A stretch of DNA of 64,000 bases from an uncultured Christensenellaceae bacterium (GTDB lineage: Bacteria > Bacillota > Clostridia > Christensenellales > CAG-1252). The stretch spans positions 30,701 through 94,700 of the forward strand of contig CAYMNK010000005.1 in the NCBI GenBank assembly GCA_964391805.1, in the 5' to 3' direction. The position numbers and the translations under genes are program-made. Shown here in pieces: positions 28,401-54,141 of the stretch (the first letter of the stretch is position 1; every line of letters starts with the position of its first letter). The notes beneath the pieces are model-generated. The model searched no databases. It was not told the DNA's origin and saw only the letters and a list, made by a program, of their open reading frames with translations.

Positions 28401-31400
28401 TATAGTAGTCTACACTTCCGTCGGAATGAACTGTCTTACTCTTATATCCGGAGTAATCGTTGACAATGCTGTTGATATCCCAAGTTACATTGACCGTACC
28501 TGCGATATCGTCTTCGGTTCCCGATAAGAATCCGCCGAATATTACCGATACTTGCGTAGGATAACTATCCGTCAGTCGCGGATCGAGTGCCGATGCCGAT
28601 TGATCTATTCCGTACGGATCGAATGTGAGGAAGTTACCCGCATTGAGTTGGAATTCTGTGATAAATCTATTCTCAATGGTCACAGGAACCTCTATCAATT
28701 GATATCCGCCTAAAGCATTACCTATTTTGGCAGTAACTTTTTTGGTACCGCCGTAGACATTCCATATTTCGTTCAATGCCGTTATATCCCAACTTACATT
28801 AGAGAATTCGAAGTTGGTATCATCGGTAAATCTTACCGTCAACTTGTCGGGATAAGTCGCTTTGTCGAGAGGATCGACACTTAAGTCGTACGGATCGAAT
28901 ACAAGTTCATCTATTAACAGACTCTTGATTACCTTGGGCTGTATAACAACCTTGAAATCAACACTTTGATATCCCGCCACATCAGACCCGATCTTTGCCT
29001 TTGCGCTATACTCACCGCCTGTATAACTAAGGGATATAGCGGAAAGGTCCCAAACGATTGGGTAATACCCTGCCGATTGTGACTCGAAAATAACGTTGCC
29101 AAGTTTGTTTTCGGGCGCGGTTATTAATTCGTAAAGATTAAATCCGTTAGTCGGATACAATGCTTCGTTTAAAGCATAATCGGTATAAACGTACGGATCG
29201 AATACATAAGAATCTCTTACCGCACTTAAGTTGATACTTGCAATCTTCCTACTAACTATCTCTATAGGTACTTCAATGGTTTGATATCCGCCGTAGGAGT
29301 TACCTACCTTAAGCAATGCCGTATATGTACCGCCGTTATAATCGAGACTGATTCCGTCGGTATTCCAAATAACACCACCTTCACCGTCAAATATACCTAA
29401 AGCATTGTATTCTGCTTTAAAGGTGGCAACCGTACCATTCTTATATACCACAGATACTTCGTCGGGATAGCAATCGGCATCGTATGCGTCGGTAGGATCG
29501 ACTATCTTACCGTTGATTACGTCGTATACCGCCAATTCCGGTTTATAAAGCGCTAACTTTTCAAGATCGCTTGCAATAGCCGTGTTGAAGATTGTTCCTG
29601 TATGAGAAATGATTATATTGGTGAATTGATAATCGATATAATCCACTATCTCGCCGTCCTTATCTCTCAATACATACAGCATACGCATAGGATCTATAGT
29701 TGTCGCTAAGCCGTCTATAACATAGTTAGATACGGTGGCGTCGATTATCGATACGGTTACATCGGTGGTTTGATAACCTGCCTTTTCAATCCTACTACGC
29801 TCCGCATCGTCGTCGCTTGTGATACGGAATTGCGCTTGAGATATACCGCCCTTGTAGTTGTTATCGATACCGGATAGATTCCACTCTACCCTCTGAGCTA
29901 TGTAATCGGTGTTGCCTTCGTACTTGACATATAAATACCTCGGGTACATGTTGACATTCAATGCATCGGGCATGATTGCTCCGTCGGTAAAATGATATGG
30001 ATCGAATTCGAGTTCGAGGTCGGATAAACTTCCGTCCGAATTCATAAGTTTCCAATCGGTCATCACGTACGATTTAATCGTTATGGTAATATTCTTATAT
30101 GTATAATATCCTATGTCGAGATTACCGATTTCCGCATCGACTCTATAGGTGTAACCTGTGTATACAGGGGTAATATCACTTGCGGAAATGCTCCACTTGA
30201 TATTATACAGTTCGGGTAATGAATTGCCGAAGGTCGCATATACTTGTGACGGTAATACTATCTCTTGGTAAGGATTGAAAATCAACGAACTTGTTCCGTT
30301 GGCATATCCGCCGTTTTCGTCGGGGAATATGATGCCGTTTAAGGTGTTTGCGTTGACTGTAACGGGGATAATCACTTGATAATTGCCTACAATTCCGTCA
30401 CCGAAGGTCAAGTATAGTTTATAGGTACCGCCGAGATAGGATTTACTCAACTCGTCGGCATTCCATTTTACTATATCGGAACCCATGCCTTCTCTACCGT
30501 CAAAGGTCTTGATAAACTCGTTTTCGCCGTTACCGTCGGTCATTGTTACATAAATAACGGACGGTAAATTCTTGATAAAGTTTTCGACTTCGTAAGCCTC
30601 GAGCACTACAGGATAATCGAAGCCAGATGCGGTAATCATAGGTGTCGGATAATATTCACCGTCTATATTTACCGATAGATTCTCATCGTATTTAACTTTA
30701 CGAGCGGAGCTTTGAGGTACATATACTTCGACATATTCTACATAGTTAAGTACATAGCCCTCGATATAGTAACTCGTGTCGCCCTTAGACGGATCGATTC
30801 TGAATATCGAGTCTGCCCAAGATACGTTGAGATTGCCAAGCGGTGTGTCTTCCGTTCCCTCGGGTACCGTTCCCGACGCAAACTTGTTGATGGTTGCGGT
30901 TTCGGGAAGATTTTCCATATAGTCGACAATACCGTTCTTGTCATAATCGAGTTCGAAAACGTCAGTTACAATACGCTTATCGAGATAATGGGTACTGTCT
31001 ACGTTAATGGTGATATTCGATTTATCCGAGGTATCGATACCGGCAAGTTTCAAGCCGTTCATGGCTATTTCCACTTCCCAGTATTCGCCGGTTGCCACAG
31101 TTTGTATGCTAAACAATATCTTGCTGATAGCGCTCAACTGTCCGTTGACAAGAGTGTCGTCAAATACTATTACCGCGAAGCATTCCGAACTTTCGGTTAT
31201 TGTCGGTAAAGGCAATAATCTTGCCACCAATTCGAATACAAGGTCGCCTGCAATACCTTCAATTAACTCGTTAATCAACTTTCTTGTTGAATTATCGGTT
31301 ATATTGATACTATCGTACAAATAATTGATAAACATGTCATAGATAGCATATAAAGTTTCGTTTTGCTTCAAATTATCGGTATCATAATCGGTTATGCCCA

Positions 31401-34400
31401 CCAATGAACCTAATCCGTCTACTATCAAGGCAGGAAGATCCTCAAACAGTTTCGCCATATATGCTCCGTTGAAATCTATTCTTACATTGGATATACCTGC
31501 TCCCGTTATTGCGTCGGAAGGTCTACCTAATGCACCTACGTCGCCGTCACCGAAAGTTATGCTCAATCCCTTGATCATACCGTCCGAACTATCGCTTGCC
31601 TTGCTTACCTTATTGTCGGAAACGTTTGTACGAGGATCGTGTGAACCCGTTATTCCCGACTTATTGATTAGGTCGTGAATGCTTATAGGTATGTTGATCG
31701 CTCTCTCGATATTATAGTTGATAAGCGGTATCGTGAAGTTGATATCCAAAATCAACTCATCTTGATACCAATAAATTCCTCTGAGTATATCATTGACAAG
31801 ATCGGGCAACATATCGGTAGCATCGAGTTTTAATCCGTGAATATATGTCGCGTTGTCGCTATCCGACGCGCCTATTCTTGTAATCTTGAACAATGTGTCT
31901 CTATCTTGTCCGCTAACAATAGATACACCCGAAGCATCTACATAGTCCGAATTGGATCTTATGGTTAAATCAATGTCCGAATTGAGTGCATCCAAAATGT
32001 TGGCAATGATATCGGCAATCAAAATTCCGTCATAGTTGTTTTCGAATCCGATCAATCCGCCGATATTGATACCCGAATAATCGCTGTATTCCTTATTGGA
32101 AGAATCGTATACGATACCTTCGAGCAATCCGTTTTGAGCGTCGTATCCGAGCTTGAATTTATTCAATTCGAGACTTACCGTGCTTCCTACAGCCTCTCCT
32201 CCATTCATCAATTTGTTGCCCTTTTCGTCCACATCGTAGCTTGTAAGCTCAACCTTTAATAAATCGAAGCCGTTAGCCATTCTAAGGTCGACACCTATAA
32301 CCGTCTCTTCGGGAAGGGTGAAATCGACGCCGAATACCTTGAACATCTTATTGAGCATATTGCCGTTAAAGTCAACGGATAACGCACTGCCCTTGGCACT
32401 ATCCTTAAGATATGATGCAAGCGTTACGGTCAACTTAGCATTGTTGATAACCTCTGCACAATTGTGTTCCACATCGGTCAATTCGCCGTTTGCATTACGG
32501 CATGTGCCGTTAGCAAGACAAGTCGAATTAGTACAACCGCAACTCAATCTCTTAGAATCGTCACCGGCTTCCGAGGTCTCCTTAGGTTCGTTCATTTCTT
32601 CGATTAATTTATTGATGAAGACTGTAACGTCCCTCGTTCCCAATAAACTGTATAAGAGGTCTCCGCCTATGTCAAGAGTACCGCCGGTAACATCTACGCC
32701 TAACATTTCTTTCAAAAGCATTGTAAGACTGATACCCTCTATCTTGGTCTTGAAGAGACCTAAACCGCTAAGGTCTATATAGAAGGAACCCGATGTATTG
32801 GTGGTATCGTCTTTACTATTACTGTTTGCACCCCAATAGTATAAGCCTAAGAGTTGCTTAGCCTCGCTTCCGTCCCTCGAGTAGGTAACCTCAACCTTTA
32901 TTTCGGTTTGTTTCCAATCGCTAAAATCGATGTCGGCAACGATCACAAAGCCCAAGGTTATAGTCGACGAAGCATTCTTAATCAATGTTACGGCACCGTC
33001 CGCAAATAATCCACTCGACTCCAATAAGTCGGTCAACATATCTACCAACGGATTGGTATAACCGTATGCATCCTTAGCAAGGTCTAATACTATTTCACCG
33101 CCTAAGTCGATATGGAATTCTTCCATATTCAATAAATCGACGTATCCGTTCAAGTTATCGAAGGCACTTAAATTATCAAATCTTCCGTTTCCGTACTCAA
33201 CACCCGATATGGTCGCATGAGGGAATTCAAGGAAGGTGGATATCGGTTTGGAAAGTGCATCGTATATCGAATTTAACGAAGTCTTTTCAATTTCATTGAT
33301 TAGTTTTCCGTCAACTACCGTCTTACCATCGCCTATCTTGACGTTAAGGTTGGTAACGGCTAATTCAACGCCCAACCAATCAAAGTTGTTGGTTCCCATA
33401 TTCTCGCCGAATAATCCCGAATCGTTCTTATCGAGATACATTCCGACACCTATAGACAACTTGTTAAGTAAGTTTTCGCCTTCTCTCAATACCTTATCAC
33501 CAAAATCTGCGTACACTTCCACTCTGTCGAATGTCGCCAAGTCGGTAATACTATTCAATATGGTTCCTACCGTTGAATCGAGATCGGCTGCGTTTATGAT
33601 GAGTTTTATCAACGCCATATTAACGGCAAGACCTATGCGTCCGTTGCCTAAAGAGATTGCAAGTTGTGCCGTTTCGGAAACGGTTGCGCTATTTGCTAAC
33701 ATATCGATTACATTTTGTACCGACGATAAATCGAGTCCGAAGGAATCAACGATTAGTCCGTAAAAATCGGGCTTATCGACGTCCGAAGCTGTAGCAAGTT
33801 TATCACCCCATTCAATTCCTGTGAGTCCAGATAAAATTCCCGACAAGTCGACGTTCTTGACGCAAAGACCTTCAATATCCATCATAGGAAGTGTCAAATA
33901 TACCGTTTCGGTTTGATTGATATAGTATAATCCGAGTAAGAGATAGTCGTAAATCTTACCGCCCTCTTGATATTCCTTAGATATTTCAAGTTTGACTTCG
34001 GTATTGTGCGAATCGGATATATCGAGAGCCATGCCTAAATCGATTCTCAATCTAATATCGTAAAAGTCGGTATCCGATGCCTTAGTATCGAATATTACGT
34101 TGAATAAATCGCTAAGTTCGCTATTAATTCCCGAATTGAGATAGAGAGAATTAGCCAATAAGTTGGTAAAGTCTATCTCGACATCTTCATCGTTTACTCC
34201 GCCGTTTGCTTGTAGGTAAATTGTCGTTTCGAATTTTATCTGCAATGCGGTAACGTCTATCCAGTTTTCATGTTCTTGATTATTATTCGGACGAATATCG
34301 GGAGCAAAATAAGTATTTGCGTTCAATGTTACTATAGGTTCGTCGCTATTATTGCCGAATACGCCTATTAAGGTATGCTCGCCGATGTATGCAACGTTAT

Positions 34401-46400: not shown

Positions 46401-49400
46401 AACTTAGGTTATTGATATCGAATACTCCGCCTATCAAAGTACCGAGATCGACATCTACCATAAAGGGTTCGAGTCCTAAGAAGGTAAGTTCAATACCTAA
46501 AATACCGCTATTGCCCGAGCGTGTATAGTACAAGCTCAATACCGTTTCGCCGTTATCGTAATCAAACAACTCGATAAAGAAGGTCAAACCGTAAAGCGTT
46601 TCGGCACCTTCTGCAAGGTTGAATGCAGCATCAACGCTCAATACATATTTGCCTTTGAGCATATCGGCTATATCGATAGAGAAAGTAGTATCTACGAACT
46701 CTTGAAGTATTGCGCTAAAATCAAAAGCGTTAGTATCGTTAGGATCGTTGGTTGCGCCTATGCTAAAATCGATAATCGCATCAAAAGATGCGTGTCCATG
46801 CATAGCATCCGCTGAAACGTATTCGCCAAGTTGACCGAAGAAGGTCAGTTTGTCGTAATCTCCGCTTCCTTGTGACGGATAAATTACTTCCAAGTCTTGT
46901 CTGAATTGTAGCGACAAATCACCCAACGCAACGTCAAGGAAGAAATCGGCATTATCGGCTAACTCGATATGTACACCTAAACCGTTTTCTATATCTGTCC
47001 CGACTGTGGTCGAACCGTATGCGGTTTCCATACTTAAGTCGTTCAAAACGCCAATGCTGACCATGCTGACGATTTCGGGTAAAGTTAACTCAATACCTGC
47101 CATTACGCATACTCTCGATAGTATTTGTGAACTGAGAGAAAGTACTGCGCCTTCAGGAGATAACTTGAGGGTGTCGAAAAGTTTGATTATACTTATGTAA
47201 TCGGTTGCTTCCTGTACTGCCGATTTCGAGTCATTCGACTTGATTATCGACATCAAAAGTTCGCTTAAATCAAAAGCATCTCTTACCGCAATCTTCAAAT
47301 TGATAGAAGGTATGTTGACATATATTACGTCGTTTATGTTGCTTTCATAGTATATGCCTATCACCGGCTCGCCGTCGGCATAGTTAGCCGTGTTGTTCTT
47401 ATCGCGAACAACAAGCATTACTTCGAGAGTCATGCCGTTAATTATCTTTTGTACCGCTTGTGCCAAAAGTTCGGAATCGCCTATCATAGCAAGCTTTAAT
47501 TCGGATAAATCTAAGCCCGCTATTGCAATCTCGGCGTCCACTCCGTAATAAATTTCTCCGTTAGAATCGGATGTTAGTAACACCCTGAGCAAGTCGTTAT
47601 AACTTGCTATTTCTTTTGCGGTCAATTCACCGTCTACAAAGGTGTCGCCTTTACCCGCTTTTACGGTCATAGAGAAAGCAAAATAGGTTTGCTCTAAATC
47701 TTTCAATAGAATCGCACTATTCTTGAGATCGGCAATTTTACTGCCATATTCGGGACGAGATTCCAATGTTTCGCCGTCATTGGGGAAGAAGATACCGTAA
47801 TCGTTAAGTTCTACCGATAATACGCTTTCACCACCCAAGGCAATCGCCACGCCTGTTCTATCGGCATTAATATAAACGGACGCACCTTCAAACAAAGCGT
47901 TGATATCGCTCCAAACTCCGCCTACTTCTAATGCATCGAGTATAACGCCTATAGCTCCGCCCGTAACTTCAATAAGTATTCCGTTATCGATTTCGGCTTG
48001 GATTATGTTATCCATAGGCTCGCTTGCCATTACGGTCGAAGGCTTGAGCATATCGCCGATAAGGTCGCTAATATAATCGGCAATGCCTAAATCGTCTACT
48101 CTAATCGCATTACCGCTTCCGCTTCCCAATTCAAGGTATATTGCCTCTATGGGTTTATTTTCGACAGAATATCTATCGAGTGAGTCATAATACAAAGATA
48201 ACAGTCTATTATTCTCGGCATAGTCCATAACTCCGTTAGTGGATGCATATAGACTTAACCAAAGTTCGATACCTATATCTTCGAGCGAATTAAATCTAAT
48301 ATTGAGTGCCAACTCGATACCTATATCGAGATGCACCTTACCTGTCGATGAATTGACTTCGATATTGAGCGAGGATCCGGGAATGTTGTCCGATATAACT
48401 TTATTGACAATGTCGGCATATTCCTTGTCTAATACAAGAGATAACTCGACATTGCTGTTTATACCTACGTTTAGTGTATCCCAAGATATATATTTACTTT
48501 CATCGGCAACAAACTTTTCGGGACGAGAGAATGCAACAGCTAAACCGTTCAAACCCAAGTCTAAGGCAAAAACTTTATCGTTACCGTCTAAAATACCTAC
48601 CCCTATTCCTACATTTATTCCGCTTTCCGCCGAAATACCTAACGAAACATTGGCGTTTACATCGGGCAAAACTACATTTTGAAGAACCTCGATAGACAAT
48701 AACGAGGTTAAAACTCCCAATAGGTTGGACGTGCTAATTACCTTAAGATATCCGTCCGCTCCGTTGATTTCGACACTATCGATAATTCCGTTGATAATAT
48801 CATAAACATCGTTTGAATCGCTTGCTTCGGATACCTTGGCACCGCTAAGGAAGGATAATGCTTTGATAATAGAATCACCGATGTTACCTTGTATCTGCTC
48901 TCTTATGTAGGGAATTTCCACATAGAAATCCTTAACTGCCATTGACGGCAACGATACATAGATGCGATCGGTGTTACTGTCGTAGAACACATCGAGTACA
49001 ATGCCATTTCCGTCTGAAAGGGTGATATCGAGCGCTATCTCCGATAAATCGTAAATATTTGCAAAAAGTTCGATATTGAGAACAAATCTCGTATCGATAT
49101 CATAATCGAAGTAAATCGCTAATTGACTGAATAGCGTTTTTATAGTATCTTCTACTTCGACATTTTCCAATATTTGAGAAACAACAGGAGATAAATTAAC
49201 ACCGTTACCGTCGGACGAATCGACAGTTCCGTTAATATCAAATCCGATCGATAACGCAAAGTATATTTCTTTCATAGAAAGTGCGCCCGTTTCATCGGAA
49301 ATCGCTACATATTCGCTTTCGGAAACTTCGGCAAAGGCTATCTTCTCGATATCGCTATATGCTGTCTTTGCAAGCAATCCGCCGATAGATAACTTGACGC

Positions 49401-52400
49401 TTGCTCCCGCAATACCTAAGTCAAGGGCTATTCCGCCCTCTGTGGTAATGCCCAACGATACGGCATCAAAATATTTATCGATGTCGATACCCGATAAATC
49501 TACGCCGAATTGTTCGAGAATAGACATCAACATTGCTCCCGTTAAAGTAACCGCAATACCGTCTTGATTAAACTTGAGCGCAACGAGTTTATCATAAGGA
49601 GTCGACTCGCTTGCACTACTCGTCGATGCCTCACGCGTCATCGAATCGGCTATAAGCGAATAAATATCCAAACCGCGATACTTAACTTCTCCTATACCGA
49701 ATAAGGGAGCGGTCGCATACACGGTATCGCTAATTCCGTTATAGAATACAGAAAGTGCTACATCGCCTCTAACCGAATTTTCGTCTAAGGTGTAGACTTT
49801 CAGTAATAATTGCATATCTTTGAGCAATTCCATAGTTTTATCGCTATCCGAAAAATCAAGATAGGATAAATCTAAATTGGCGAATATATCATATGCAAGT
49901 GCTATATGTAAATCGCCCTCGGTAACCGCCATACCAAAGGTAAGTTCGGGTAATACATCCTTGATAAGGTTTTCGATGGTAGAACCTTGGGTTCCGCTTG
50001 CGAATTTATCGATGTCGAGCCCTATCGTACCCGATAAGGCAAATGACATCTCTTGCAAATTATCAAAATCCAATATATCATAAGATAGAACGTCTTCGGG
50101 GATAAGTGCCTCATTCTTGATGAAGGCAAGCGCAATATTTTGCAATCCTAACGTAACATAACTCAGCCCTTCCGTCGTGTCGGGATCGGAATTGTTATCT
50201 TTAATAAATAACGTCAAGCCTAATCCTAAACCGTCTTTAATACTCAAATCGATACTCGGAATAATGCCGTCAAGCGCTACTCCTGTATAGAAATCGTCAA
50301 TATCGAGTACGGCTACGCCAACAATGTTCAAAATACGCTTTAGAGTATTAGATGCAAGCGTTATTGCTAAGCCTTTATTTCCAACGGATACGGAATTTAG
50401 AATGCCGAGGTTCTGAAGTATCAAATCTGTCACACTTACATCACCGTTTTCGGTAGCTAAAGAGGTAGTTCCGTTACAACTGCATTCGCATGTGTCGGGA
50501 CAACCGACAGCATCGCCTACTAAGCAGGCTCCTCTCGAAATACACGCATCGCAATCGCATCCGCATACCAAAGATCCGACTTTAATTTTAAAACTGTCGA
50601 TATCATAGCCAGATACTTCACTTCCGTTAACCTTACCGTGTGTGGCATCGACGTAAAGATAGATGCCGTCAAAGTAAAGTGTCAATAGCGTTTCGCCCTC
50701 GTTTATCAACTCTATCTTAGCATCCATTCCGCTCATGATTTTGGCGAAATCGGTTCCGTTCGATAGCGAAATATTCGCCGATAATTTGATTAGAATATCG
50801 CCTTTAACATTACTGCCGTTCAAGCCGTCAATGCTTATATTCAAGAATAAATCATTGAGTAGAGTCGCATATTCGCCTAAATCGAAATGGTCGGCTATGG
50901 TCAAAAAATCGCTTACATCGTATGTATTACTCTTAAGATCGTAACGGACGTACAGTTCGGTAGATAATGAAATATCCTCGATTGCCGTAATGTCCTTGTA
51001 CTCCGCATAGTTAATTTTCGGAAAATCGGTATATTTGGCATCGATATTAATATCATAAATATTAACACCTAACTTAAGGTTACCTTGATGAGAATCGGTG
51101 GTGGCTAAGAATAAATCAAGCCCAATTTCCAATCCGTTCTCGGTGGAAATATGTAGATTGCTTTCGGAATCGAGTTCTATCATATCACGAATATCGGCGC
51201 CCATAACTACCGACAAGATAGCATCCAATACATCGCTTGATAGATATATTGCAAGTTGTTCGTTAATAGCAACTTTATTGACGATGCTACCTATCAAATT
51301 AAGTATTTGTGCTGTATCGAGGTCGGATGCCTCAGCAGTATTCTCAAAGGTCAATAGAGCATCGGAAGCCATTGCGCTTGCCGACTTGTTTAACGACTTA
51401 TTGATCATCGATACAAGATCGAGATCGTATTTGATTTTAGGCGCATCGAGTCCTTCGATACCCAAATTATCGAGGTTAATAAAGATTGCGGAAGCATTAT
51501 CGGCGTAATCGTCATAATAAACACTCAAAAGTTCGCTTCCGTCGTTTTTAGCAACGATCTTTAAGGCAAGTTCGAGTTCGCTGATACTAACCGATAATTC
51601 TTCACCTTTAATCAAATCTGCTAAAGAGAAGCCCTCAAAACCTACGTTTCCTGTAAGAAGTAAGGTAATACCGCCTTTAATTCTATTCTCGAACTTGAGT
51701 ACGCATGCCAATTCCGCCAAGTAATCGCGGAGAGACCCGATAGCATCGTTTATGTCGATACTGACACCACCGTCACTATAATCGATGTCGCCCGAATCAA
51801 AATCAATGTCTATACTCAAATTCAACGACATTTCATTCATTTCGTTGAGATCGATAAGGTCGTCTGTAATCTCAACATCTATAAATTTAGGTTCGAATCC
51901 TAAGCCTACAAGAGGAAGTTCAAGCGAAACTACGGTATCTTCTGCAAGATAAATATCAATATCGCACGAAATACCGAAAACGTCGGGCTCGGTGATAAGA
52001 CCTAATTCCAAGTCAATTGATCGAAAAGCTATAGAATCGTCCGAATATGCCTTATCGCTCATAGCATCGGCTATCGCCTTAACTACGGCGCCGTCATCAC
52101 CCATAAAGCCTGCAACTGTTTCAAGAATATTGATAAGAGAAGTTCTGTCAAGAGTCAACGATAAACTTTGAGTTTCACCGTCAAGTTCAAGAGCACGCAA
52201 TACCTCGACCACAAGGGGAATAATATTATTTTTTATCAAGCCCAAAACATCGGTTTCACCCGCAAAAGCAAGATTGAAGGAATTACTCATGAAGTAATTA
52301 CGAATGGCTTGTTCGCGGTTTTCTCCACCGTATAAACGAATAAGTGCCGATTCGACCTCGCTTGCAGATGCGGACGACGAAAGCATCGCCGTCAAAGATT

Positions 52401-53826
52401 CGCCGAGTAATGGTACTAATAATTCATTCAAATCAAAGTTATACTTAAAACTCGGTAAGCCTAATGCCGATAAATCAATCAGCATTTCTTCGTTTCTTCC
52501 GTCGTAGGTCAACTTAATCCAAGCATCTGCGCCCGCACCGCCTAATACCATAACAACTTTGTTGTTAGAATTATCGGCAAGATCGAGAACCGCTTGAGCT
52601 CTAAGGTCTATACCGACTTCGCCTACGCCCAATTCAATCGCAGTGTTACCGAGATTACCTATACTGTCAACTTTAAGAAGTGATGCTATCAACGTACCCG
52701 CCAAGTCACCTACGGTAACGCTTTTGGCACTTCCGTTGGATATTTTAATCGTAGTATCTATATCGAGATTGGTAATAGAAAATTCTCTATAACTCGAAAA
52801 ATCAGGAAGGTTGAAATCGATACCTTGTAAATCGCTACCGATATATTTGGCACCTATGCCGAGTCCAAAGGCAAAAATATCCTCGCCGTACGAAATGTCG
52901 GTATCGACAGACTGAAATAATCCGTCTTTGGTTTTAATATCAAAGCCAAAGCCTATAGTTTCAAAGGAGTAAGAACAAATATCGGAGAAGGTCATTCCGC
53001 ACAATTCTAATAATACACTGTCGATATCGCCAACAACGCTCGTAACGATACTCCACAAGCCCTTGATTTTAGATAACAATCCGCTGATAAACGTATTGAT
53101 GTCGAAGTCGACGGAGAATGTCTTATATTCGACAGATACACCATTTTCGTTGGTAATATCGGTCACTATACGTGCATCACTGATAAGGTCCTTAAGAAGT
53201 TCGATGACGATAGCACCGACATCGATTTGAATTCCGATATCGACTTTGAGATCTTCGAGTTTGTCGCCCAAGTCACCGATAGAGCCTAACGAATCTTTTA
53301 GCGAATCTACAGCGGACATCAACTGAGCAAGACTTAACTCGCTGATATAGAAGGTTGCGCCTTTACCGTCGGCAATGTTGAAATAGAAAACCGAGTTTTC
53401 ATAATAAGCGCCGAAAAGCAAGGATTCGTCTTTTCTCCTAAACTCAAATGACAGAGTGGAGGCGGAATTTTTCGCCTCTTCAGTTTCACCTTTCAAATAA
53501 TAACGAAGTTTGAGTTCGAAATGATAATCTAACGACTTATCTCCGTTAGTAATATTCAATTCGTTACTTCTAAGGTCTACAACGAGATAATCCTCGTCGG
53601 AACTGTACCCCGAGTCAACAAGAAAATCTACCGCATCACCTAAAACTTTGAAGAAATTGGTAGTATCAAGAACGTCGACCTTACTTTCCGTCTTGTCTGT
53701 AATTTCGCCCGGTGAGGGAGGAACTATAGTTCCCGACTCCTGACAGGCGGTTAGAGTTAAGCATGCGACAATAACAAATACTATTGCCACAAGCATAACT
53801 GTAAACAAAAAGCGTTGTTTTTTCAT
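22462..53826 (-). CDS. Giant surface lipoprotein 2 (about 10,454 aa): lipobox, about 19-20 novel modules, Cys-rich CGC mini-domains, C-terminal Ig-like repeat array
   Basis: Uninterrupted 31,386-nt ORF (22462-53847). GGAGG sits 7 nt upstream of the second ATG (53826), so I place the start there. The N-terminus MKKQRFLFTVMLVAIVFVIVAC LTLTAC gives a lipoprotein signal. The internal repeat architecture is described under findings. The protein ends ...NEGYIVLKF with no TM segment or LPXTG motif. Confidence 0.95.
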   Translation of the reverse strand: MKKQRFLFTVMLVAIVFVIVACLTLTACQESGTIVPPSPGEITDKTESKVDVLDTTNFFKVLGDAVDFLVDSGYSSDEDYLVVDLRSNELNITNGDKSLDYHFELKLRYYLKGETEEAKNSASTLSFEFRRKDESLLFGAYYENSVFYFNIADGKGATFYISELSLAQLMSAVDSLKDSLGSIGDLGDKLEDLKVDIGIQIDVGAIVIELLKDLISDARIVTDITNENGVSVEYKTFSVDFDINTFISGLLSKIKGLWSIVTSVVGDIDSVLLELCGMTFSDICSYSFETIGFGFDIKTKDGLFQSVDTDISYGEDIFAFGLGIGAKYIGSDLQGIDFNLPDFSSYREFSITNLDIDTTIKISNGSAKSVTVGDLAGTLIASLLKVDSIGNLGNTAIELGVGEVGIDLRAQAVLDLADNSNNKVVMVLGGAGADAWIKLTYDGRNEEMLIDLSALGLPSFKYNFDLNELLVPLLGESLTAMLSSSASASEVESALIRLYGGENREQAIRNYFMSNSFNLAFAGETDVLGLIKNNIIPLVVEVLRALELDGETQSLSLTLDRTSLINILETVAGFMGDDGAVVKAIADAMSDKAYSDDSIAFRSIDLELGLITEPDVFGISCDIDIYLAEDTVVSLELPLVGLGFEPKFIDVEITDDLIDLNEMNEMSLNLSIDIDFDSGDIDYSDGGVSIDINDAIGSLRDYLAELACVLKFENRIKGGITLLLTGNVGFEGFSLADLIKGEELSVSISELELALKIVAKNDGSELLSVYYDDYADNASAIFINLDNLGIEGLDAPKIKYDLDLVSMINKSLNKSASAMASDALLTFENTAEASDLDTAQILNLIGSIVNKVAINEQLAIYLSSDVLDAILSVVMGADIRDMIELDSESNLHISTENGLEIGLDLFLATTDSHQGNLKLGVNIYDINIDAKYTDFPKINYAEYKDITAIEDISLSTELYVRYDLKSNTYDVSDFLTIADHFDLGEYATLLNDLFLNISIDGLNGSNVKGDILIKLSANISLSNGTDFAKIMSGMDAKIELINEGETLLTLYFDGIYLYVDATHGKVNGSEVSGYDIDSFKIKVGSLVCGCDCDACISRGACLVGDAVGCPDTCECSCNGTTSLATENGDVSVTDLILQNLGILNSVSVGNKGLAITLASNTLKRILNIVGVAVLDIDDFYTGVALDGIIPSIDLSIKDGLGLGLTLFIKDNNSDPDTTEGLSYVTLGLQNIALAFIKNEALIPEDVLSYDILDFDNLQEMSFALSGTIGLDIDKFASGTQGSTIENLIKDVLPELTFGMAVTEGDLHIALAYDIFANLDLSYLDFSDSDKTMELLKDMQLLLKVYTLDENSVRGDVALSVFYNGISDTVYATAPLFGIGEVKYRGLDIYSLIADSMTREASTSSASESTPYDKLVALKFNQDGIAVTLTGAMLMSILEQFGVDLSGIDIDKYFDAVSLGITTEGGIALDLGIAGASVKLSIGGLLAKTAYSDIEKIAFAEVSESEYVAISDETGALSMKEIYFALSIGFDINGTVDSSDGNGVNLSPVVSQILENVEVEDTIKTLFSQLAIYFDYDIDTRFVLNIELFANIYDLSEIALDITLSDGNGIVLDVFYDSNTDRIYVSLPSMAVKDFYVEIPYIREQIQGNIGDSIIKALSFLSGAKVSEASDSNDVYDIINGIIDSVEINGADGYLKVISTSNLLGVLTSLLSIEVLQNVVLPDVNANVSLGISAESGINVGIGVGILDGNDKVFALDLGLNGLAVAFSRPEKFVADESKYISWDTLNVGINSNVELSLVLDKEYADIVNKVISDNIPGSSLNIEVNSSTGKVHLDIGIELALNIRFNSLEDIGIELWLSLYASTNGVMDYAENNRLLSLYYDSLDRYSVENKPIEAIYLELGSGSGNAIRVDDLGIADYISDLIGDMLKPSTVMASEPMDNIIQAEIDNGILIEVTGGAIGVILDALEVGGVWSDINALFEGASVYINADRTGVAIALGGESVLSVELNDYGIFFPNDGETLESRPEYGSKIADLKNSAILLKDLEQTYFAFSMTVKAGKGDTFVDGELTAKEIASYNDLLRVLLTSDSNGEIYYGVDAEIAIAGLDLSELKLAMIGDSELLAQAVQKIINGMTLEVMLVVRDKNNTANYADGEPVIGIYYESNINDVIYVNIPSINLKIAVRDAFDLSELLMSIIKSNDSKSAVQEATDYISIIKLFDTLKLSPEGAVLSLSSQILSRVCVMAGIELTLPEIVSMVSIGVLNDLSMETAYGSTTVGTDIENGLGVHIELADNADFFLDVALGDLSLQFRQDLEVIYPSQGSGDYDKLTFFGQLGEYVSADAMHGHASFDAIIDFSIGATNDPNDTNAFDFSAILQEFVDTTFSIDIADMLKGKYVLSVDAAFNLAEGAETLYGLTFFIELFDYDNGETVLSLYYTRSGNSGILGIELTFLGLEPFMVDVDLGTLIGGVFDINNLSFAEDGDTYGKDDSMLGLLDTLKGSISVLLLDDDFKISVTGEILQAVLSFFGYDKYLPALIKGVTLKNNDYTDKLADGDYLATVDGIRYGNDFSVSSGVNSKKYTLSLKSEKIAKIELDGKELSDIEDYFHIDGQKLSVNKASASVKALSVGVHRFVVYYQDGGSTESAFEIVNTSFSFEKQNDYVEYVLNIGYKSIDRIAIYRSSALIAELTTTRAINEYFVIDRNRNTIAFNVSSNVVKALSVGAYNINVLYSDGNETSFVMTKSVTKVSIDAIELDGLDITSITLSGASNKVLVEDNTSTEWYGNYFAFNTEGGKLSLGYVDDRIEASVKVNDTTDLTISIGNLKLDASKYEVTSPKTYKENVEFLTVKTAIEFNAQAKEDVFIAITDLIGETLDKYIPSGTLPFDISELPIGLWLEDDVDAHYLLDLQINLRFDQYSNTPIDLGGSEIVIQIYKLSTISANEVMVEDLKLALSYIGSEGENGALYINIPYFDLLLKIDEAPWRTVINDAIGGSMTLSPETSRASEEDITFENILSLFTGLRITEDNVQIDFAEDLLSLICKLVGLDIDFSKLNCDRSYIKINNFIHGIEDTTVFKKESENDTVRSNLLEARLELLMNDGNKNALAKIIEGANALEVDESCSILKNEIIDKLIAFDPDRNSNDEFKVIASIVKSDEFICIDNAQKAQVIAMLDAFEVKDEYLDLIVYEPEVSFDQDLIYETPLGQYTTITEAKALYMSLSGSIGLSSDGSKINIGNLLQSNGGNSSFDNILNEIQGADTEIVFGEGEQKLDFNFEVNVGMGSDKLSQLVDGGSIQEVIFALVDDLYIYFELKQTTSSGSVAVAELYYQNSYIYLDLSNLGLPQVAMKLEVEELLKLIFGSSEVSLASESGLDYSSAFEILVHSKELVLRGSVAFIDLLLEKLGYSLLDADVELDMSFTLDNESDELIDIGITAIDNSSNKTVLSVELGKPIIKLGGFVSKLVTDATSYAFIEDIEYLSASLSLEIGYHLNSTSTDGVSDYVLTDIFSEVLGLSEVPFEVESSLTNRIILDLNLNLNIVDVNATELYLHMYSLDDDYLTVYYDGNGYLYLSAPVLDSSLNIRVDFEIKNIFDSLGITEVIEGIDIAELIYGLFKKDTNTLSSAGEIDDLTTSQIILLMISKLGIDSDGALSVFFNKHILSALGLEILNSEALIEELKEVSVSVDLFKRNISANVTLNSKTDGAEDPYLDLVMRDYNIRGTRQDISFDGSKYTTSDDYKHLYISSTGALDYSIPDGTYDFGGVIQSLIKNVSIPFELEGMQGTLYYTLDAKIGIVDYLDSELALEVYYKDAVYDIGSLLLSVYFDMDKGEAYIDLPWFEVPKIALTGIDASSLVQSLFGGLSLASDEPEWYGIVRLISNLVDRIVISDGEHTLPEGLNIVLNDELLGNLLDYFISKYKIELPFSLVDSDKALSYVGVSITNKQIVADIELENTLDGAVNKYGYLRIKAGIDAIKPSDKSIRPTRTQDVTSYVTLLDFQAPEMLVLETLYFEGSIDIDIDMLKSNINLEKVVQYLLNDKLTLNIVENIDMVISIDINANINLKNIGYSEILLSVLVKERIGEYNDGTPKYNEALLARAYLVGMDNSLYLDAPMIGLYDIKLDVDLSSLIDSISTVENYLESVSVSDGLDCGCKDSACIANGSCYDREGKKLCADGCECLDCKLPCGCTDSYCLEYAHISGDYENACGVMGIYCHDGEDCSCSCHNPLECGCINPGCVEAGSCIIGWKYVYQNKRNSDGTYVIIDGIIQQELTKVPVTRCGDDEDNCINNQNPCLCHKSVLECGCINPEHIDDYNCPLDKDECIFIKCTVHDTAEECFAHSDECIFAYTTDTHCDLSCREHWTGLITDMFDVFRLSKTQLQLVTTTHVLSSLFELLTNEKLNYEDSPAAGLTFTVNYLDRDYRTDVQRKALVDLLRAVSVLEGEELDAIIDELEAFDIDLGKSSELDTLITRFKALTVTDGAEANYDIALTNFEAFRDKGGYYEEAFFENLDASLEMWFYGGWSAETGDYIGDKSTVSLKVGSFKLDTGKFDIPFYRIDESTRRETTELKNISDYQLFSEVSKISFSVAIELIGELGESKDGEGLTVDFSSIIDEIIPGFDSIFKILTEPYGGKMAFTLVIDGSLDLNNFNASQILLSIYEGSKDALNNRIAMIFYDGLDSEGCSIFLDIPAFNISKVKYVGIDLSSLFFKEKLDCGCENVLCNANGSCYSDNGSRICGDGCCDCKPFDCGCECDECVSSGVCDGKCLSSCECNHHSVSSAGEHELVCGCNNDECVSRGSCVIGCTDCGYIKAPSSDNNCHRPLWNKDNALKCGCYDPICTSRGCCYDLCAYCTDSSCVSKYNATNKFASDTTYTVLEVLRAIVSIDISQERGIQLAISPSITAELLNYFGVDIDLDALENAGALKAGFIISTRSGLGINIEGTTDNDEFLTDPGLTITLSDIGLKLNTKDVREYLDKDVKETLSSYKSLTIDDNIVLSASATITNNSYEGYWNVSTLFTNLFGTTADLGIDFDDSEYIVQMNFLANISIDSIFGNGLDNIDINRILSENEILLEFVNVTDSSRSQLLISLYLSDGWAYIDFGILRDTPSIKLDIVDLLGEKRVSSASDSESQIKYDPKTNNPELADKGRMYFYTEEKDNEAFHVALKGKSIESIVIENLNINKSGTVRERIVLDTPEKISSYFDIVNNGSDLTSIILLNNANAVALNESAQGCYYNIIVTTEGGSVTIPAKVGSRKLLGFDNGEKIASTVLSFISFIGASEDTLSLNIGGDILMIVEELLGIDYALPEIEGVRMDMSLINSLTAINESEYNSGTTYGVDKFGKSNVCSDLVFDIKVSGVVNKAVFTSRDGKAVTIGLDELSKHVLVRSNSVVLIYKTVSELPNGLWKFELFDGAESVLATGYFNVSAYISPALSLAIENFSLDLAFDNYSVVLLKNDFIDSEHRFSLLKYSLSTYYVNDDSFRPSKTYDSNYNIDSDAYIDVVNGLDELYLSADIDINIDVSNNNISNLDDKYNTNGSVMNLGEDLSGLLGAVLLNLGMSSSEINGDYKLILRVHLDSLDFTTFSYRNIKVYLKLQKKCYGFTVEGVSTGIDGDYVDMLMAYFNGDELFINANPALVKFATCTQVSISIDEVSNYWNDNVSGAGDNMPSTVYDNYALAGEDFSVAGVLSLFKDITIGRGTIGIEVADNFVNTLLKMFTDFDYDISLGNLGLTLDYINGAINIDLEKETVFAPSLAYDANGTPIYNNAVDYASIRIDKDAKTVSLTANALKNLSIGNWTIYVNYLDGSVDVFNAVIAKNRTVTYIYNSSKVTESELYEQLTVSNISSITMDIDKVTLCDSSNEKSYFAFEVDSLGAKVSKKVLFSLSKQKFLVKFGEDSAYLDLTNYEPILIYKGITESIRYIGDYFYITPSGVSVGELTDIEIISDSKAIKIAMNEEGYNKQAFGISLSICNICLDFKLPEQFGNSGLYDASEEYRYISESVFTMIKGLPLDEYLRWSDLEYMLGASMDITLDYDTANIDPFSYFEHIEGDSVDLSGLAEAIKSAILLTTKVDTQITIDFYLKLNISSPYMSEGKIEISLGGYYREVGSTLVPIDQPVVIYFDGAGQKDLSKLYIDMSILGIDPFYVEADIVSLVKNYISNNINGGSFDSSDNDNRVNIDKDKLDCGCRCETCLTNGKCTSYGEHTCLEDCACTCCKLSCGCTDTNCIANGSCYDKTGLRICDGTDCGCSCAKLSCGCNDEECVKAGTCLTLSDDGEYRVIVRCREKGDCTCSCCMLSCGCRDEKCLENGSCIDKNGVLLCSETCGCSDKTIVPDAKEESTLDKVLGMTKYLGNLVSGVSVGNQGLLIAFNKNVMNNLFAMLAINTVFSDDVDIYIEARGYDDFENSYLKLVIDDCKEENRYTTEVKFYNLELKGYDSAYSRDYLYNSDKLSDKWTIYRDSVFRGLTLKMDNGSGFIEMTDDNVAYIGEHTLIGVFGNNSDEPIVTLNANTYFAPDIRPNNNQEHENWIDVTALQIKFETTIYLQANGGVNDEDVEIDFTNLLANSLYLNSGINSELSDLFNVIFDTKASDTDFYDIRLRIDLGMALDISDSHNTEVKLEISKEYQEGGKIYDYLLLGLYYINQTETVYLTLPMMDIEGLCVKNVDLSGILSGLTGIEWGDKLATASDVDKPDFYGLIVDSFGLDLSSVQNVIDMLANSATVSETAQLAISLGNGRIGLAVNMALIKLIINAADLDSTVGTILNSITDLATFDRVEVYADFGDKVLREGENLLNKLSIGVGMYLDKNDSGLFGENMGTNNFDWLGVELAVTNLNVKIGDGKTVVDGKLINEIEKTSLNSIYDALSKPISTFLEFPHATISGVEYGNGRFDNLSAFDNLNGYVDLLNMEEFHIDLGGEIVLDLAKDAYGYTNPLVDMLTDLLESSGLFADGAVTLIKNASSTITLGFVIVADIDFSDWKQTEIKVEVTYSRDGSEAKQLLGLYYWGANSNSKDDTTNTSGSFYIDLSGLGLFKTKIEGISLTMLLKEMLGVDVTGGTLDIGGDLLYSLLGTRDVTVFINKLIEEMNEPKETSEAGDDSKRLSCGCTNSTCLANGTCRNANGELTDVEHNCAEVINNAKLTVTLASYLKDSAKGSALSVDFNGNMLNKMFKVFGVDFTLPEETVIGVDLRMANGFDLLKVELTSYDVDEKGNKLMNGGEAVGSTVSLELNKFKLGYDAQNGLLEGIVYDSSNKEYSDYSGINIGGLIGFENNYDGILIADIIANILDALNSDIDLTIRSNSDYVDASGVSIVSGQDRDTLFKITRIGASDSDNATYIHGLKLDATDMLPDLVNDILRGIYWYQDELILDINFTIPLINYNIERAINIPISIHDLINKSGITGSHDPRTNVSDNKVSKASDSSDGMIKGLSITFGDGDVGALGRPSDAITGAGISNVRIDFNGAYMAKLFEDLPALIVDGLGSLVGITDYDTDNLKQNETLYAIYDMFINYLYDSINITDNSTRKLINELIEGIAGDLVFELVARLLPLPTITESSECFAVIVFDDTLVNGQLSAISKILFSIQTVATGEYWEVEIAMNGLKLAGIDTSDKSNITINVDSTHYLDKRIVTDVFELDYDKNGIVDYMENLPETATINKFASGTVPEGTEDTPLGNLNVSWADSIFRIDPSKGDTSYYIEGYVLNYVEYVEVYVPQSSARKVKYDENLSVNIDGEYYPTPMITASGFDYPVVLEAYEVENFIKNLPSVIYVTMTDGNGENEFIKTFDGREGMGSDIVKWNADELSKSYLGGTYKLYLTFGDGIVGNYQVIIPVTVNANTLNGIIFPDENGGYANGTSSLIFNPYQEIVLPSQVYATFGNSLPELYNIKWSISASDITPVYTGYTYRVDAEIGNLDIGYYTYKNITITIKSYVMTDWKLMNSDGSLSDLELEFDPYHFTDGAIMPDALNVNMYPRYLYVKYEGNTDYIAQRVEWNLSGIDNNYKGGISQAQFRITSDDDAERSRIEKAGYQTTDVTVSIIDATVSNYVIDGLATTIDPMRMLYVLRDKDGEIVDYIDYQFTNIIISHTGTIFNTAIASDLEKLALYKPELAVYDVINGKIVDPTDAYDADCYPDEVSVVYKNGTVATFKAEYNALGIFDGEGGVIWNTDGISLDYNGGTYTALLKVGNSYGGYQTIEVPIEIVSRKIASINLSAVRDSYVFDPYVYTDYALNEALYPTNGFNLYELITAPENKLGNVIFESQSAGYYPIVWDLSAISLSYTGGEYSAKAKIGSDVAGYQSVDFKVVIQPKVIKSLLIDELVFDPYDLSVDPLDKATYPDKLTVRFTDDTNFEFSNVSWDITALNEIWNVYGGTKKVTAKIGNALGGYQLIEVPVTIENRFITEFQLNAGNFLTFDPYGIDQSASALDPRLTDSYPTQVSVIFGGFLSGTEDDIAGTVNVTWDINSIVNDYSGYKSKTVHSDGSVDYYKEYTVTAAVGNSRIGYQYYDVTVRVLNREIERLIPAEITVDPFSTEDLTSTVTILFKDGQEGSMAVEWTDKDYDIFVLGRDVDNSDASIHARIGNNIGGYQVFPVKVNVMDKSITALYNGNDIVAGMVDGKLSTSGFTYEIDGVVYTRDSSYFEIDPLEQTIELVTVTSYLSNSAIERIYVRDVVSDTLTAYFAQDGTTRSLSASWLFDSIINVDYNGKDFYSGNNNGTTGAILEVGTPKVGYITLEYRTIVLNRKVSTNVTIVNGEAVTTPAIYTNYIDSADNEPLKYIVDDVFGQSSYPNVLYFGFAESSVSNESVLSKVVSWTKNGDTASITLGNSAYGYQTFTFKVYKVSRDVVYDSYITPDNEAEYNQLVDSIANKVKNVSFTAVAHYVGNSILVETDRNALGNYVDEIYSLVLSMRMDRRTVGGEGNIIKALALLRASSALGTALDSVINEVESLKDMSISIIYVDPYDIDMPESLNVTIGRAKVRAWNAETGSYLWDSSINDYVYIDVTRDLCRCDKCVGTVCSDSCDCWCVSRSYTMNADWSKSDINYLYSTAGITQEVRNVVVGNEAIGYYTVKAYVEVEGRKIVAVEKDEFEIDPYDYNALPSNIEVLFEDEAGNRLAGTLDIMANIANAQKVTQAMIDDINSVVYGHSEYLNNNTAFYQGGYYVLTARVGSRLGGYQEVQMLLKVADRTIARVEGETDSEGNWIENITPYGGLNGSTDTPLGIVSVVYVTGEKGTLNALWSYANIDYNYLGCDRQSYVLIGNTQGGYQTIPVTVKVESRVVSSIVPLNDSGNEFVYNPFDFGGVVPSYVDVYFNGNTDNALRLSVDKTDGFKLTEEYAIGSKELKALIRIGNDRSGYQWTECAIKVDDRILGIDSIVLDGEEHNGTTYSAVSAYSNPLTIDSEGRILLNGTLLQVKAYIADENGVNNSGKAVWLYAKLLSDLEYDYRGLDNIVVAKIAIGNDTAGFVSQDAYGNQFTMSIKVESEIISKVEGIRQSGALVNTFDLYEKYFAESSYNPHEMVVMDNEGIMATLSSGKTLDAKYGLSIKDYAFVDEFGNVVDYKGNSNARIILYIGSDKGGYQPVYLKDGNEFRTVCVENREIDLDAITGEFKSKFDPYSDKLPDVISYNGFDYSVTYICDGKPFDGSAISYYGGVFDLVAKIGSVRGGYQEYRYTLNVSQKLIASVDGLSGVVIDQFGTNNLPEGLINVTFTDGTTAVFEVKIISEYMQRDYKLGVVASGNNLVFTDSIISAYGKNGLFSCGGWDLSNVELDLDGGIYYAVLYVGNSYGKYQPVSIPVEVTKKTLDHKNTVQYVVSREGDLVETEPLDNIYTGFGEYFVLPNDLWLTFSDGTSFNTTVEWNTLTWTDSNGEHTLTDWSINDLYRNVDGNKVYGDYTLYANVFGCVLSVKIFVVEDRIVMSDSFNDYYSVRRGSSSPLPNEMYQTIFDAKSNTTVSSRVFTVEWENVPSLSIEDSYTLTACMFGQGITWTKDITLHVYSSSIASVSAITDGSVHVIGQGNKITALDMPTVEVIVKYGKYSLSKQISANWLPLTKTVGDVVTDISTNEANSFEITATDVGAKYTFKAVIIASNGEELTLNGQSITVDFVVIDSEDISTKIVLDTNATDDEGNEYILTYYGDGGISPVKLLSDDVKIISSIFYSNADKTDIVSENELPKEVGRYYYEVTVTYKNIVTEYIKTLSCTYIVQKADISSKIVISDTSVIYNGEAQGIKAYVSGRIADIEILYLIDGEWTVNTPKAVGDYQAKVKVVSANYDGEISTRFSIVKAVHYYLYDEKGERYGDTYYSGIGRFLSLPSVDLSVEANEYVSYAWFYIDTDGVKHPFKASDRITEDMCNTTEYDYLELNLYLAVIRLKIVNEKTLSIDKIITLSGNEGGEIIDVFTLITIDIYNSETETKVGQITYSDNKTMVNGEFEIGKYLDEYRLVVTMQIGHSLGIMTNGNEGYIVLKF
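24440..30700 (-). repeat. About 18 tandem Ig-like (beta-sandwich) repeats with the 'K(I/V)GNxxGGYQxxxVxVxV' signature
   Basis: Examples are ALLKVGNSYGGYQTIEVPIEIVSRKI (about 29270), AKIGSDVAGYQSVDFKVVIQPKVI, AKIGNALGGYQLIEVPVTIENRFI, IGNTQGGYQTIPVTVKVESRVV and VGNSYGKYQPVSIPVEVTKKTL (about 24480). The period is about 90-120 aa. Each unit opens with an (F/V)DP(Y/F) motif and contains W(D/N)...Y.GG.Y. Confidence 0.65.
26788..26844 (-). other. Cys cluster 6 (CRCDKCVGTVCSDSCDCWC), a degenerate variant inside the Ig-like region
   Basis: 8 Cys in 19 aa, read directly from the minus-strand translation. Confidence 0.6.
32458..32541 (-). other. Cys cluster 5 (CGCTNSTCLANGTCRNANGELTDVEHNC)
   Basis: One CGC-x4-C-x3-G-x-C unit, read from the minus-strand translation. 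Confidence 0.7.
34859..35296 (-). other. Cys cluster 4: four tandem CGC mini-domains (34 Cys in 146 aa)
   Basis: LDCGCRCETCLTNGKC...CKLSCGCTDTNCIANGSC...AKLSCGCNDEECVKAGTC...MLSCGCRDEKCLENGSC...CSETCGCSD. The Cys count is mine. Confidence 0.8.
39274..39708 (-). other. Cys cluster 3: four CGC mini-domains (31 Cys in 145 aa)
   Basis: LDCGCENVLCNANGSC...FDCGCECDECVSSGVC...LVCGCNNDECVSRGSC...LKCGCYDPICTSRGCC...CAYCTDSSC. Confidence 0.8.
40774..41403 (-). other. Cys cluster 2: composite Cys/His-rich region (about 210 aa)
   Basis: LDCGCKDSACIANGSC...LPCGCTDSYC...CHDGEDCSCSCHNPLECGCINPGCVEAGSC, then a Cys-free insert of about 30 aa, then ...RCGDDEDNCINNQNPCLCHKSVLECGCINPEHIDDYNC...THCDLSC. Confidence 0.8.
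50476..50565 (-). other. Cys cluster 1 (CGCDCDACISRGACLVGDAVGCPDTCECSC)
   Basis: 10 Cys in 30 aa. It lies about 30 residues after the closing motif TLLTLYFDGIYLYVDAT (50641-50700). Confidence 0.75.
53743..53826 (-). other. Lipoprotein signal peptide of giant 2
   Basis: MKKQR + FLFTVMLVAIVFVIV + AC (lipobox IVAC), or the second lipobox LTAC six residues later. The mature protein would start at one of these Cys residues. Confidence 0.7.
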
Positions 53827-54136: not shown

Positions 54137-54141
54137 TCATT

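Follow-up and report, generated by a model that had tools for sequence, protein, structure and literature searches.

Twenty diverged copies of an apparently undescribed module in a giant lipoprotein of an uncultured Christensenellaceae bacterium

The window analysed here is a 64,000-nucleotide (nt) stretch of contig CAYMNK010000005.1 (assembly GCA_964391805.1, positions 30,701 to 94,700) from an uncultured Christensenellaceae bacterium, and its minus strand carries an open reading frame (ORF) for a lipoprotein precursor of 10,461 amino acids (aa), called giant 2 (g2). The mature protein has a computed mass of ~1.14 MDa, an isoelectric point (pI) of 4.2 and a net charge of ~-871; about 830 kDa of g2 is accounted for by 20 tandem copies of a single module. 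Judged from sequence comparison, this module defines a domain family not described before, with no counterpart in Pfam, NCBIfam or the sequences of the PDB. By the same kind of comparison the array is ancient and predates the divergence of the lineages that carry it, because its units are matched best by the colinear units of other species' proteins. As a whole g2 is of a known kind, the giant repeat-built surface protein, and its function is predicted, with modest confidence, to be that of an N-terminally anchored, very acidic fibrillar cell-surface adhesin or tether.

The gene and its module array

g2 is a real, intact gene under strong purifying selection, since the ratio of nonsynonymous to synonymous substitution (dN/dS) against an 85% identical ortholog, locus L001 of an uncultured Christensenellaceae metagenome-assembled genome (MAG), is 0.058 over 4,529 codons, with dS ~1.6. 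The metagenome-type source, and a protein rich in D, N, G, S and L, might suggest a frame open by chance, a chimeric assembly or a pseudogene in decay, with repeats that reflect compositional bias. Such an artefact is effectively refuted by the dN/dS and dS values, by colinear orthologous units in several independent assemblies and species, by shuffled and reversed decoys that score at noise level, and by intact homologues of 5.6-7.9 thousand aa (kaa) recovered repeatedly, for example in clusters of 39 and 19 members.

The protein starts with MSDGGHFMKKQRFLFTVMLVAIVFVIVACLTLTAC followed by QESG, a signal peptide ending in a lipobox; the pattern [LVI]-[ASTVI]-[GAS]-C is matched by L-T-A-C at aa 32-35 (MKKQRFLFTVMLVAIVFVIVACLTLTAC followed by QESG), and a hydropathy scan identified aa 10-38 as the sole hydrophobic segment of g2. 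Nearly all N-terminally complete homologues likewise have a signal peptide and then a lipobox Cys. Motif and hydropathy scans of the whole protein found neither an LPXTG motif nor a transmembrane or hydrophobic segment at the C-terminus, and an LPXTG (sortase) anchor was rejected, as the single LPxT[GAN] match is an internal LPETA at aa 7647.

The array had first been described by eye from two anchor motifs, an opening and a closing segment. Strict regular expressions for the closing motif missed most copies, and a hidden Markov model (HMM) was required. A closing HMM, iterated from 12 closings found by regular expression, recovered 19 closings at 21-62 bits, with no more than 1.6 bits on reversed g2, shuffled g2 and the neighbouring protein giant 1. 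The closing starts of 11 units are spaced at 230-315 aa, and the longer spacings are 364-1028 aa. A full-length unit HMM built from 10 units found 17 units initially and 19-20 once iterated, and no decoy exceeded 4.3 bits. With a family-wide HMM (269 columns), units tile aa 130-7300 except for a gap at aa 5579-6120, which holds a degenerate unit that scores 15.2 bits vs 0.2 for the best of 20 shuffles. The count, 19 strong modules and one degenerate, agrees with the 19-20 estimated in the initial annotation, and all of its motif examples are present (closings at aa 1885, 2162, 3820 and 6635, an opening at ~aa 1135 and an immunoglobulin (Ig)-like insert at ~aa 2630).

Other parts of that description required adjustment. 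Its coordinates, 31030-53742, correspond to g2 aa 36-7606 and start directly after the lipobox Cys35, with the array thought to run from there to about residue 7,600. This holds for aa 130-7300; aa 36-129 is not matched by the unit HMM and aa 7301-7640 scores at noise level with it, so that the supported array ends ~300 aa short of that residue. The latter segment may be a decayed terminal half-module. The proposed unit length of 330-480 aa did not stand either: the core unit is about 255-300 aa (234-300 aa in 11 of the 20 units), with a family median of 284 aa, and the surplus consists of inserts at two loops, not of a bigger core. An alignment of short units and the consensus showed conservation spanning the whole unit, a periodicity that goes beyond the two anchor motifs. 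The most conserved HMM columns gather at the module junction (D265/S1, L3, Y23, Y24, Y30 and D32), with Y191 in addition. The array region has a pI of 4.15. The features of g2, in window coordinates, are as follows.

22462..53847, minus: g2 ORF, lipoprotein precursor of 10,461 aa
53743..53847, minus: signal peptide and lipobox L-T-A-C (Cys35); sequence and hydropathy scan
53461..53742, minus: N-terminal segment ahead of the first closing, aa 36-129; no unit-HMM match
31948..53460, minus: array of 20 tandem modules, aa 130-7300; unit HMMs
52573..53460, minus: unit 1, aa 130-425; family HMM
51634..52530, minus: unit 2, aa 440-738; family HMM
50749..51576, minus: unit 3, aa 758-1033; family HMM
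49861..50703, minus: unit 4, aa 1049-1329; small Cys-rich insert, aa 1085-1130
49045..49815, minus: unit 5, aa 1345-1601; family HMM
48277..49044, minus: unit 6, aa 1602-1857; family HMM
47515..48270, minus: unit 7, aa 1860-2111; family HMM
46609..47427, minus: unit 8, aa 2141-2413; closest to consensus; target of AlphaFold model 2
45088..46581, minus: unit 9, aa 2423-2920; Ig-like insert of 234 aa, aa 2585-2818
43996..45057, minus: unit 10, aa 2931-3284; 96-aa insert
43216..43917, minus: unit 11, aa 3311-3544; family HMM
42445..43206, minus: unit 12, aa 3548-3801; family HMM
41650..42444, minus: unit 13, aa 3802-4066; target of AlphaFold model 1
39898..41592, minus: unit 14, aa 4086-4650; insert of 198 aa with 30 Cys, aa 4153-4350
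38689..39891, minus: unit 15, aa 4653-5053; insert of 137 aa with 28 Cys, aa 4728-4864
37114..38637, minus: unit 16, aa 5071-5578; two inserts of ~120 aa each
35590..37011, minus: unit 17, aa 5613-6086; degenerate, with inserts; closing-like MLMAYFNGDELFINA
34012..35487, minus: unit 18, aa 6121-6612; insert of 161 aa with 34 Cys, aa 6177-6337
32914..33999, minus: unit 19, aa 6617-6978; family HMM
31948..32904, minus: unit 20, aa 6982-7300; one CGC motif, aa 7103
30928..31947, minus: transition segment, aa 7301-7640; by-eye closing, SKASD linker and opening
22465..30927, minus: C-terminal distal region, aa 7641-10461, ~2,800 aa
50458-50595, 40798-41391, 39256-39666, 34837-35319 and 32500-32550, minus: Cys-rich insert spans, the last being aa 7100-7116
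45394-46095 (aa 2585-2818), 37450-37824 and 34366-34599, minus: site-2 insert spans

The two insertion sites are fixed with respect to the module. Site 1 lies after HMM column 71, in the Ser/Ala/acidic linker separating closing and opening, and takes Cys-rich pieces; site 2 lies after column 158 and takes Ig-like or other pieces of 78-234 aa, among them aa 2585-2818, which contains the KALSVGVHRFVVYYQDGGSTESAFEI segment singled out earlier. The small Ig-like inserts noticed from the sequence are in this way located at one loop, and because inserts occupy this fixed loop after column 158, the module would be a scaffold that displays extra domains via fixed loops. The motif C-G-C-x4-C-x3-G-x-C occurs in 12 copies across g2. 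The Cys-rich inserts have no match in Pfam, similar ones are present at the same site in homologues P0001, P0005, P0008 and P0023, and they may be metal-binding or disulfide-stabilised knobs. Inserts so dense in Cys are odd in an extracellular protein of a strict anaerobe.

Age and distribution of the module family

Units within g2 share a mean identity of 16% and a maximum of 27%. The best match of every unit is the colinear unit in another species' protein, at 24-43% identity; the units at aa 1049, 1345 and 1602, for example, pair with those at 36, 345 and 615 of homologue P0016, and the units at aa 6121, 6617 and 6982 with those at 38, 318 and 684 of P0025. These values bear out the view from the initial annotation of an old array that has had no recent amplification. 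A self-BLAST of g2 does not bring out the modules; its matches are chiefly to the Cys-rich inserts and to the Ig-like repeats of the C-terminus.

A scan of a genome collection gave two related loci, the ortholog L001 and a second, L002 (CAMPCZ010000010.1, 1-13597), from an uncultured Clostridia MAG. The latter is a single ORF, open at both ends (>4,532 aa), with at least 11 modules of the same family that are colinear with g2 units 10-16; its tblastn match falls on the Cys-rich insert region. When a 14-unit profile was searched against 1.84 billion representative proteins, only 67 proteins were matched at E <= 1e-3, 27 of them at E <= 1e-30; many are 5.6-7.9 kaa long with 8-18 matched stretches. 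Together, these 67 representatives and the two MAG loci contain 484 module instances. All named cluster members that were checked are listed as "hypothetical protein" from Eubacteriales/Clostridia MAGs. The family is confined to giant lipoproteins, and every member with an identified source is from uncultured Clostridia. In six complete homologues the first 4.3-5.1 kaa contain 14-15 module hits and the remaining ~1.3-3.4 kaa is other sequence; the g2 module count exceeds that of all six. The tail of four of the six matches beta-sandwich domains of CarboxypepD_reg, SdrD_B or Big_4 type.

Neighbouring genes are not conserved across the homologues; P0003 and P0010 are syntenic with each other. 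In several homologues a cluster lies upstream of the giant gene that comprises a ~1000-aa transglutaminase-core/Big_2 protein, a 283-aa protein, a ROK-family protein and a PIG-L (LmbE-like deacetylase) protein. Its recurrence could come from synteny within the lineage or from a functional connection, such as the modification of glycans. In the window itself, g2 is followed by the gene for giant 1, a second, unrelated and unannotated giant surface protein. Its N-terminus carries a signal/anchor, its C-terminus a transmembrane segment and behind it an acidic tail; Pfam matches nothing in it, and the unit HMMs show no g2 modules. The gap between the two genes is 181 nt without a terminator-like site, and giant 1 has a promoter-like site of its own at 22409-22381. 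Upstream of g2, 828 nt at 53848-54675 contain no ORF of 150 aa or more and include a promoter-like site; an RNA element was considered and rejected, with no match to any Rfam family anywhere in the window. Two genes upstream of g2, at 55432-57933 on the minus strand, lies the gene for a protein of 833 aa with MacB/LolCDE-like architecture, in which an ABC ATPase is fused to an FtsX-type permease; a connection with export or with the handling of lipoproteins would be speculative. The neighbouring features are:

3405..22280, minus: giant 1, 6,291 aa, directly downstream of g2
53884..53912, minus: promoter-like site TTGACT-17-TAAAAT, ~37 nt upstream of the g2 ATG; consensus match only
L004 4286-9647, L006 1-5703, L007 1-5659 and L005 6353-7150: upstream gene set in homologous loci

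Predicted structure and comparison with known folds

Searches with Pfam and NCBIfam found no family in g2 aa 1-4900; in aa 4701-9700 NCBIfam found none and Pfam just Big_4 at ~aa 8530, beyond the array. Per-unit Pfam scans (14 and 82 units) gave scattered single hits at E >= 0.002 with no family recurring, and profile searches of all PDB chain sequences with the units reached E = 0.18 at best. The initial annotation had been unable to place the motifs among RTX, cadherin, Big, FN3, Rib, GLUG, collagen-like or LRR repeats, and the unit has no significant match in Pfam, NCBIfam, the PDB or by Foldseek. Literature searches for a prior description of the module family yielded nothing relevant; the literature searched contains no account of the module, its size and antiquity, the shared strand run described below, the lipid anchor at the N-terminus or the Cys-rich inserts in the loops.

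AlphaFold2 gave two models of medium confidence. Model 1 spans one unit and the next closing (aa 3801-4146), from a 38-row multiple sequence alignment, with a mean predicted local distance difference test score (pLDDT) of 72.2 and a predicted template modelling score (pTM) of 0.55; model 2 covers aa 2199-2481 in a linker-to-linker frame from an 82-row alignment (pLDDT 68.9, pTM 0.54). Both show ~12 strands per module, several of 12-14 residues, and 4-5 short helices, mostly as long antiparallel strands, in keeping with the beta-rich structure that had been suspected from residue composition. A run at pLDDT ~90 consists of the last two long strands of one unit, the next closing meander and a helix, while the Ser/Ala/acidic linker and two loops are disordered. 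The consensus shows hydrophobic and polar residues in alternation along most strands; in the central closing strand, LLLGIYY, both faces are hydrophobic. Foldseek searches with these models against the PDB and BFVD gave nothing at E < 0.1 and TM-scores of at most 0.23, and neither by HMM nor by structure was the unit matched significantly to a described repeat (Pfam, NCBIfam, PDB, BFVD). Mean-field direct-coupling analysis of 370 units was dominated by gap-run artefacts and left a handful of usable long-range couplings; a few of these, as weak evidence, connect columns 39-47 of the closing, columns 90-94 of the opening helix and strand columns 134-137, which hints at packing of the closing against the opening helix that comes after it.

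From these models each module would open with a 3-4-strand antiparallel closing meander, straight after the preceding module's last two long strands, and would continue with the Ser/Ala/acidic loop, an amphipathic helix-strand-helix opening and further meanders of amphipathic strands. Because the closing meander and the previous module's strands form one confidently modelled strand run, the modules may interlock into a continuous rod and not beads on a string. Such a rod would be very acidic, with ~12 strands per module, and roughly 100 nm long. That the module is a new fold, without a relative in the PDB or AFDB, building a rigid interlocked rod is put forward tentatively, as a possibility judged less likely than not.

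The strand run also invites comparison with proteins that conduct lipids. In such an arrangement g2 would be a membrane-anchored, continuous amphipathic beta-groove that carries lipids or other hydrophobic molecules and extends to the cell wall, to an outer layer or to a partner cell. The alternating strands of 12-14 residues, the meanders punctuated by short helices, the strand run crossing module borders and the N-terminus anchored in the membrane by the lipobox all accord with this, and the closest Foldseek neighbours, weak and non-significant, are open-barrel lipid/lipoprotein binders and porins (LolA-like (3bk5), RseB, LptD, P47, OspA and OmpT). An N-terminal membrane anchor, long amphipathic antiparallel meanders split by helices or loops, and a strand run across repeats are likewise found in the AsmA-like/TamB/YhdP and VPS13/ATG2 proteins. 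A comparison with TamB was run because alternating strands and helices recall the AsmA/TamB repeating-beta-groove (RBG) proteins. However, when the 82-unit profile was aligned by hhalign to TamB of E. coli K-12 the probability was 0.07% (E = 0.68), no unit had an AsmA, AsmA_2 or TamB/DUF490 match in Pfam, and membership was rejected on these grounds. Nor was there a Foldseek hit at E < 0.1 in the PDB, a library that includes bridge-like and Lpt proteins. An RBG unit is ~100-150 aa vs ~280 aa for the g2 repeat, the g2 host is probably monoderm, and g2 ends in ~2,800 aa of Ig-like sequence, which is an adhesin layout. The amphipathic helices of the module could cover the hydrophobic face of the sheet, and LLLGIYY suggests a buried core, not an open groove. 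To our knowledge, surveys of diderm Firmicutes name Negativicutes, Halanaerobiales and Limnochordia, not Christensenellales. Christensenella stains Gram-negative and lipopolysaccharide (LPS) has been reported (PMC10808311), so that an outer layer is conceivable. On balance a conduit is improbable, and slightly more so is its stronger version, in which the copies of a new fold would form an unbroken amphipathic groove of >100 nm, a Firmicute VPS13/TamB-like bridge linking the membrane with an outer layer or with a partner cell, for instance a methanogen; the rigid rod is judged the likelier of the two fold proposals.

Surface role and its alternatives

The preferred role, an adhesin or tether, is drawn from the layout of the whole protein: a lipobox anchor, 20 tandem modules, then Ig-like repeats, as in fibrillar adhesins. 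The Sec signal peptide, with its lipobox LTAC present in the sequence, would direct export, and Cys35 would be lipidated via the Lgt/Lsp pathway, with g2 kept in the outer leaflet of the cytoplasmic membrane. The stalk would then carry the Ig-like C-terminus through and past the wall, towards partner cells, host glycans or matrix, and the inserts in the two surface loops may add binding surfaces. Within the C-terminal region, diverged Ig-like repeats of ~100 aa each extend over aa ~7760-9860; Big_4 at aa 8529-8556 (36.4 bits) is the one Pfam match above its curated cutoff, and MBG_3 at aa ~10207-10279 falls just under its own. The region has no relative among PDB sequences. An acidic pI and high negative charge are typical of extracellular, cation-binding surface proteins. 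The arrangement would be that of a fibrillar adhesin turned around relative to the polarity usual in Gram-positives. A role in cell-cell adhesion is plausible for the lineage because Christensenella forms flocs that enclose Methanobrevibacter (PMC7002349; PMC10808311), a behaviour not linked to the g2 gene.

Comparison with known giants places g2 among, and yet apart from, several groups. The fibrillar adhesins and giants of Firmicutes (Staphylococcus aureus Ebh with its FIVAR-GA repeats, Bap/Esp-type proteins and the Lactobacillus kunkeei giants; PMC4494060) are likewise megadalton, acidic and extracellular, with one anchor, a long tandem-repeat stalk, Ig-like domains and a presumed role in adhesion or aggregation. 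Unlike them, g2 is anchored by an N-terminal lipid and not by LPXTG or a C-terminal transmembrane segment; its unit of ~280 aa exceeds the usual stalk domain (~70-130 aa) and has no Pfam model; its units are 16% identical with positional orthologs across species, in place of near-identical recent repeats; and its modules appear, from the models, to be joined via a shared strand run. The giants reported by West-Roberts et al. (bioRxiv 10.1101/2023.11.21.568195) from gut Clostridia and Omnitrophota, some of the former being Clostridia of mammalian guts, are also very large, predicted extracellular, metagenomic and repeat-rich. Those proteins are characterised by known domains (RCC1, Listeria-Bacteroides repeat, dockerin, LRR, HEAT/TPR, beta-helix), with numerous transmembrane segments in many of them (10.1101/2023.11.21.568195), whereas in the g2 family the lipid is the sole anchor and the module contains no known domain. 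Arrays of Big_2, Big_3, Big_4, CarboxypepD_reg and SdrD_B resemble g2 in that such domains occur in the distal part of g2 and its homologues and as small loop inserts, but the g2 modules are ~3 times larger, contain helices and match none of those models.

Several points weigh against an adhesin. Gram-positive fibrillar adhesins are usually anchored by C-terminal LPXTG or wall-binding domains. Pfam scans recognised no adhesive or ligand-binding domain, the distal matches being Big_4 and the sub-threshold MBG_3, and a conserved operon partner was considered and rejected, so that no partner gene backs a pathway. The models are of medium quality (pLDDT 69-72, pTM ~0.55), and the rod geometry and length are estimated from secondary structure and pLDDT alone. 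Finally, the envelope type of Christensenellaceae is debated, Gram-negative staining and LPS having been reported (PMC10808311), which affects where a lipoprotein would sit.

Some of the same observations would suit a structural role, in which g2 is part of a surface layer, sheath or floc matrix, maybe together with giant 1, and serves mechanical support or spacing and not the binding of a particular ligand. Extreme acidity, very large size, the absence of an identifiable ligand-binding domain in Pfam and NCBIfam scans, the flocs of Christensenella (PMC7002349) and the adjoining giant 1, itself a giant extracellular protein 181 nt away with no terminator-like site between, are consistent with this. 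Yet giant 1 lacks g2 modules, none of the six homologues examined has a giant-1-like partner beside the giant gene, and no SLH, CWB or other wall-binding domain was found; S-layer and matrix proteins are usually abundant, far smaller and self-assembling. An envelope or matrix scaffold is considered unlikely, while deserving more weight than a lipid conduit. A contact-dependent arm that delivers a toxin or an effector, as CdiA, MCF or Rhs proteins do, with the repeats as spacer and the C-terminus as payload, would account for giant size, a long beta-rich array and C-terminal regions that vary among homologues. It is highly improbable: a toxin payload was rejected when Pfam and NCBIfam scans showed no toxin, Rhs/YD, PT-TG, VENN or immunity-gene signature, the C-terminus resembles beta-sandwich repeats, and the downstream gene encodes another giant, not a small immunity protein.

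The preferred reading of g2 as a surface adhesin or tether, and the module family itself, bear on a lineage that attracts interest in connection with host leanness and methanogen syntrophy. The 269-column module HMM would provide an annotation for an entire class of genes that are among the largest of uncultured gut Clostridia, Christensenellaceae included. For a bacterial stalk it is unusual to find large, ancient units with positional orthologs across species and strands that appear to continue into the next unit, and also two fixed insertion loops, one with dense Cys-rich repeats in a strict anaerobe. Should the modules form a groove, g2 would represent a new kind of extracellular bridge; if adhesion is the true role, g2 would be a candidate factor behind floc formation and co-aggregation with methanogens.

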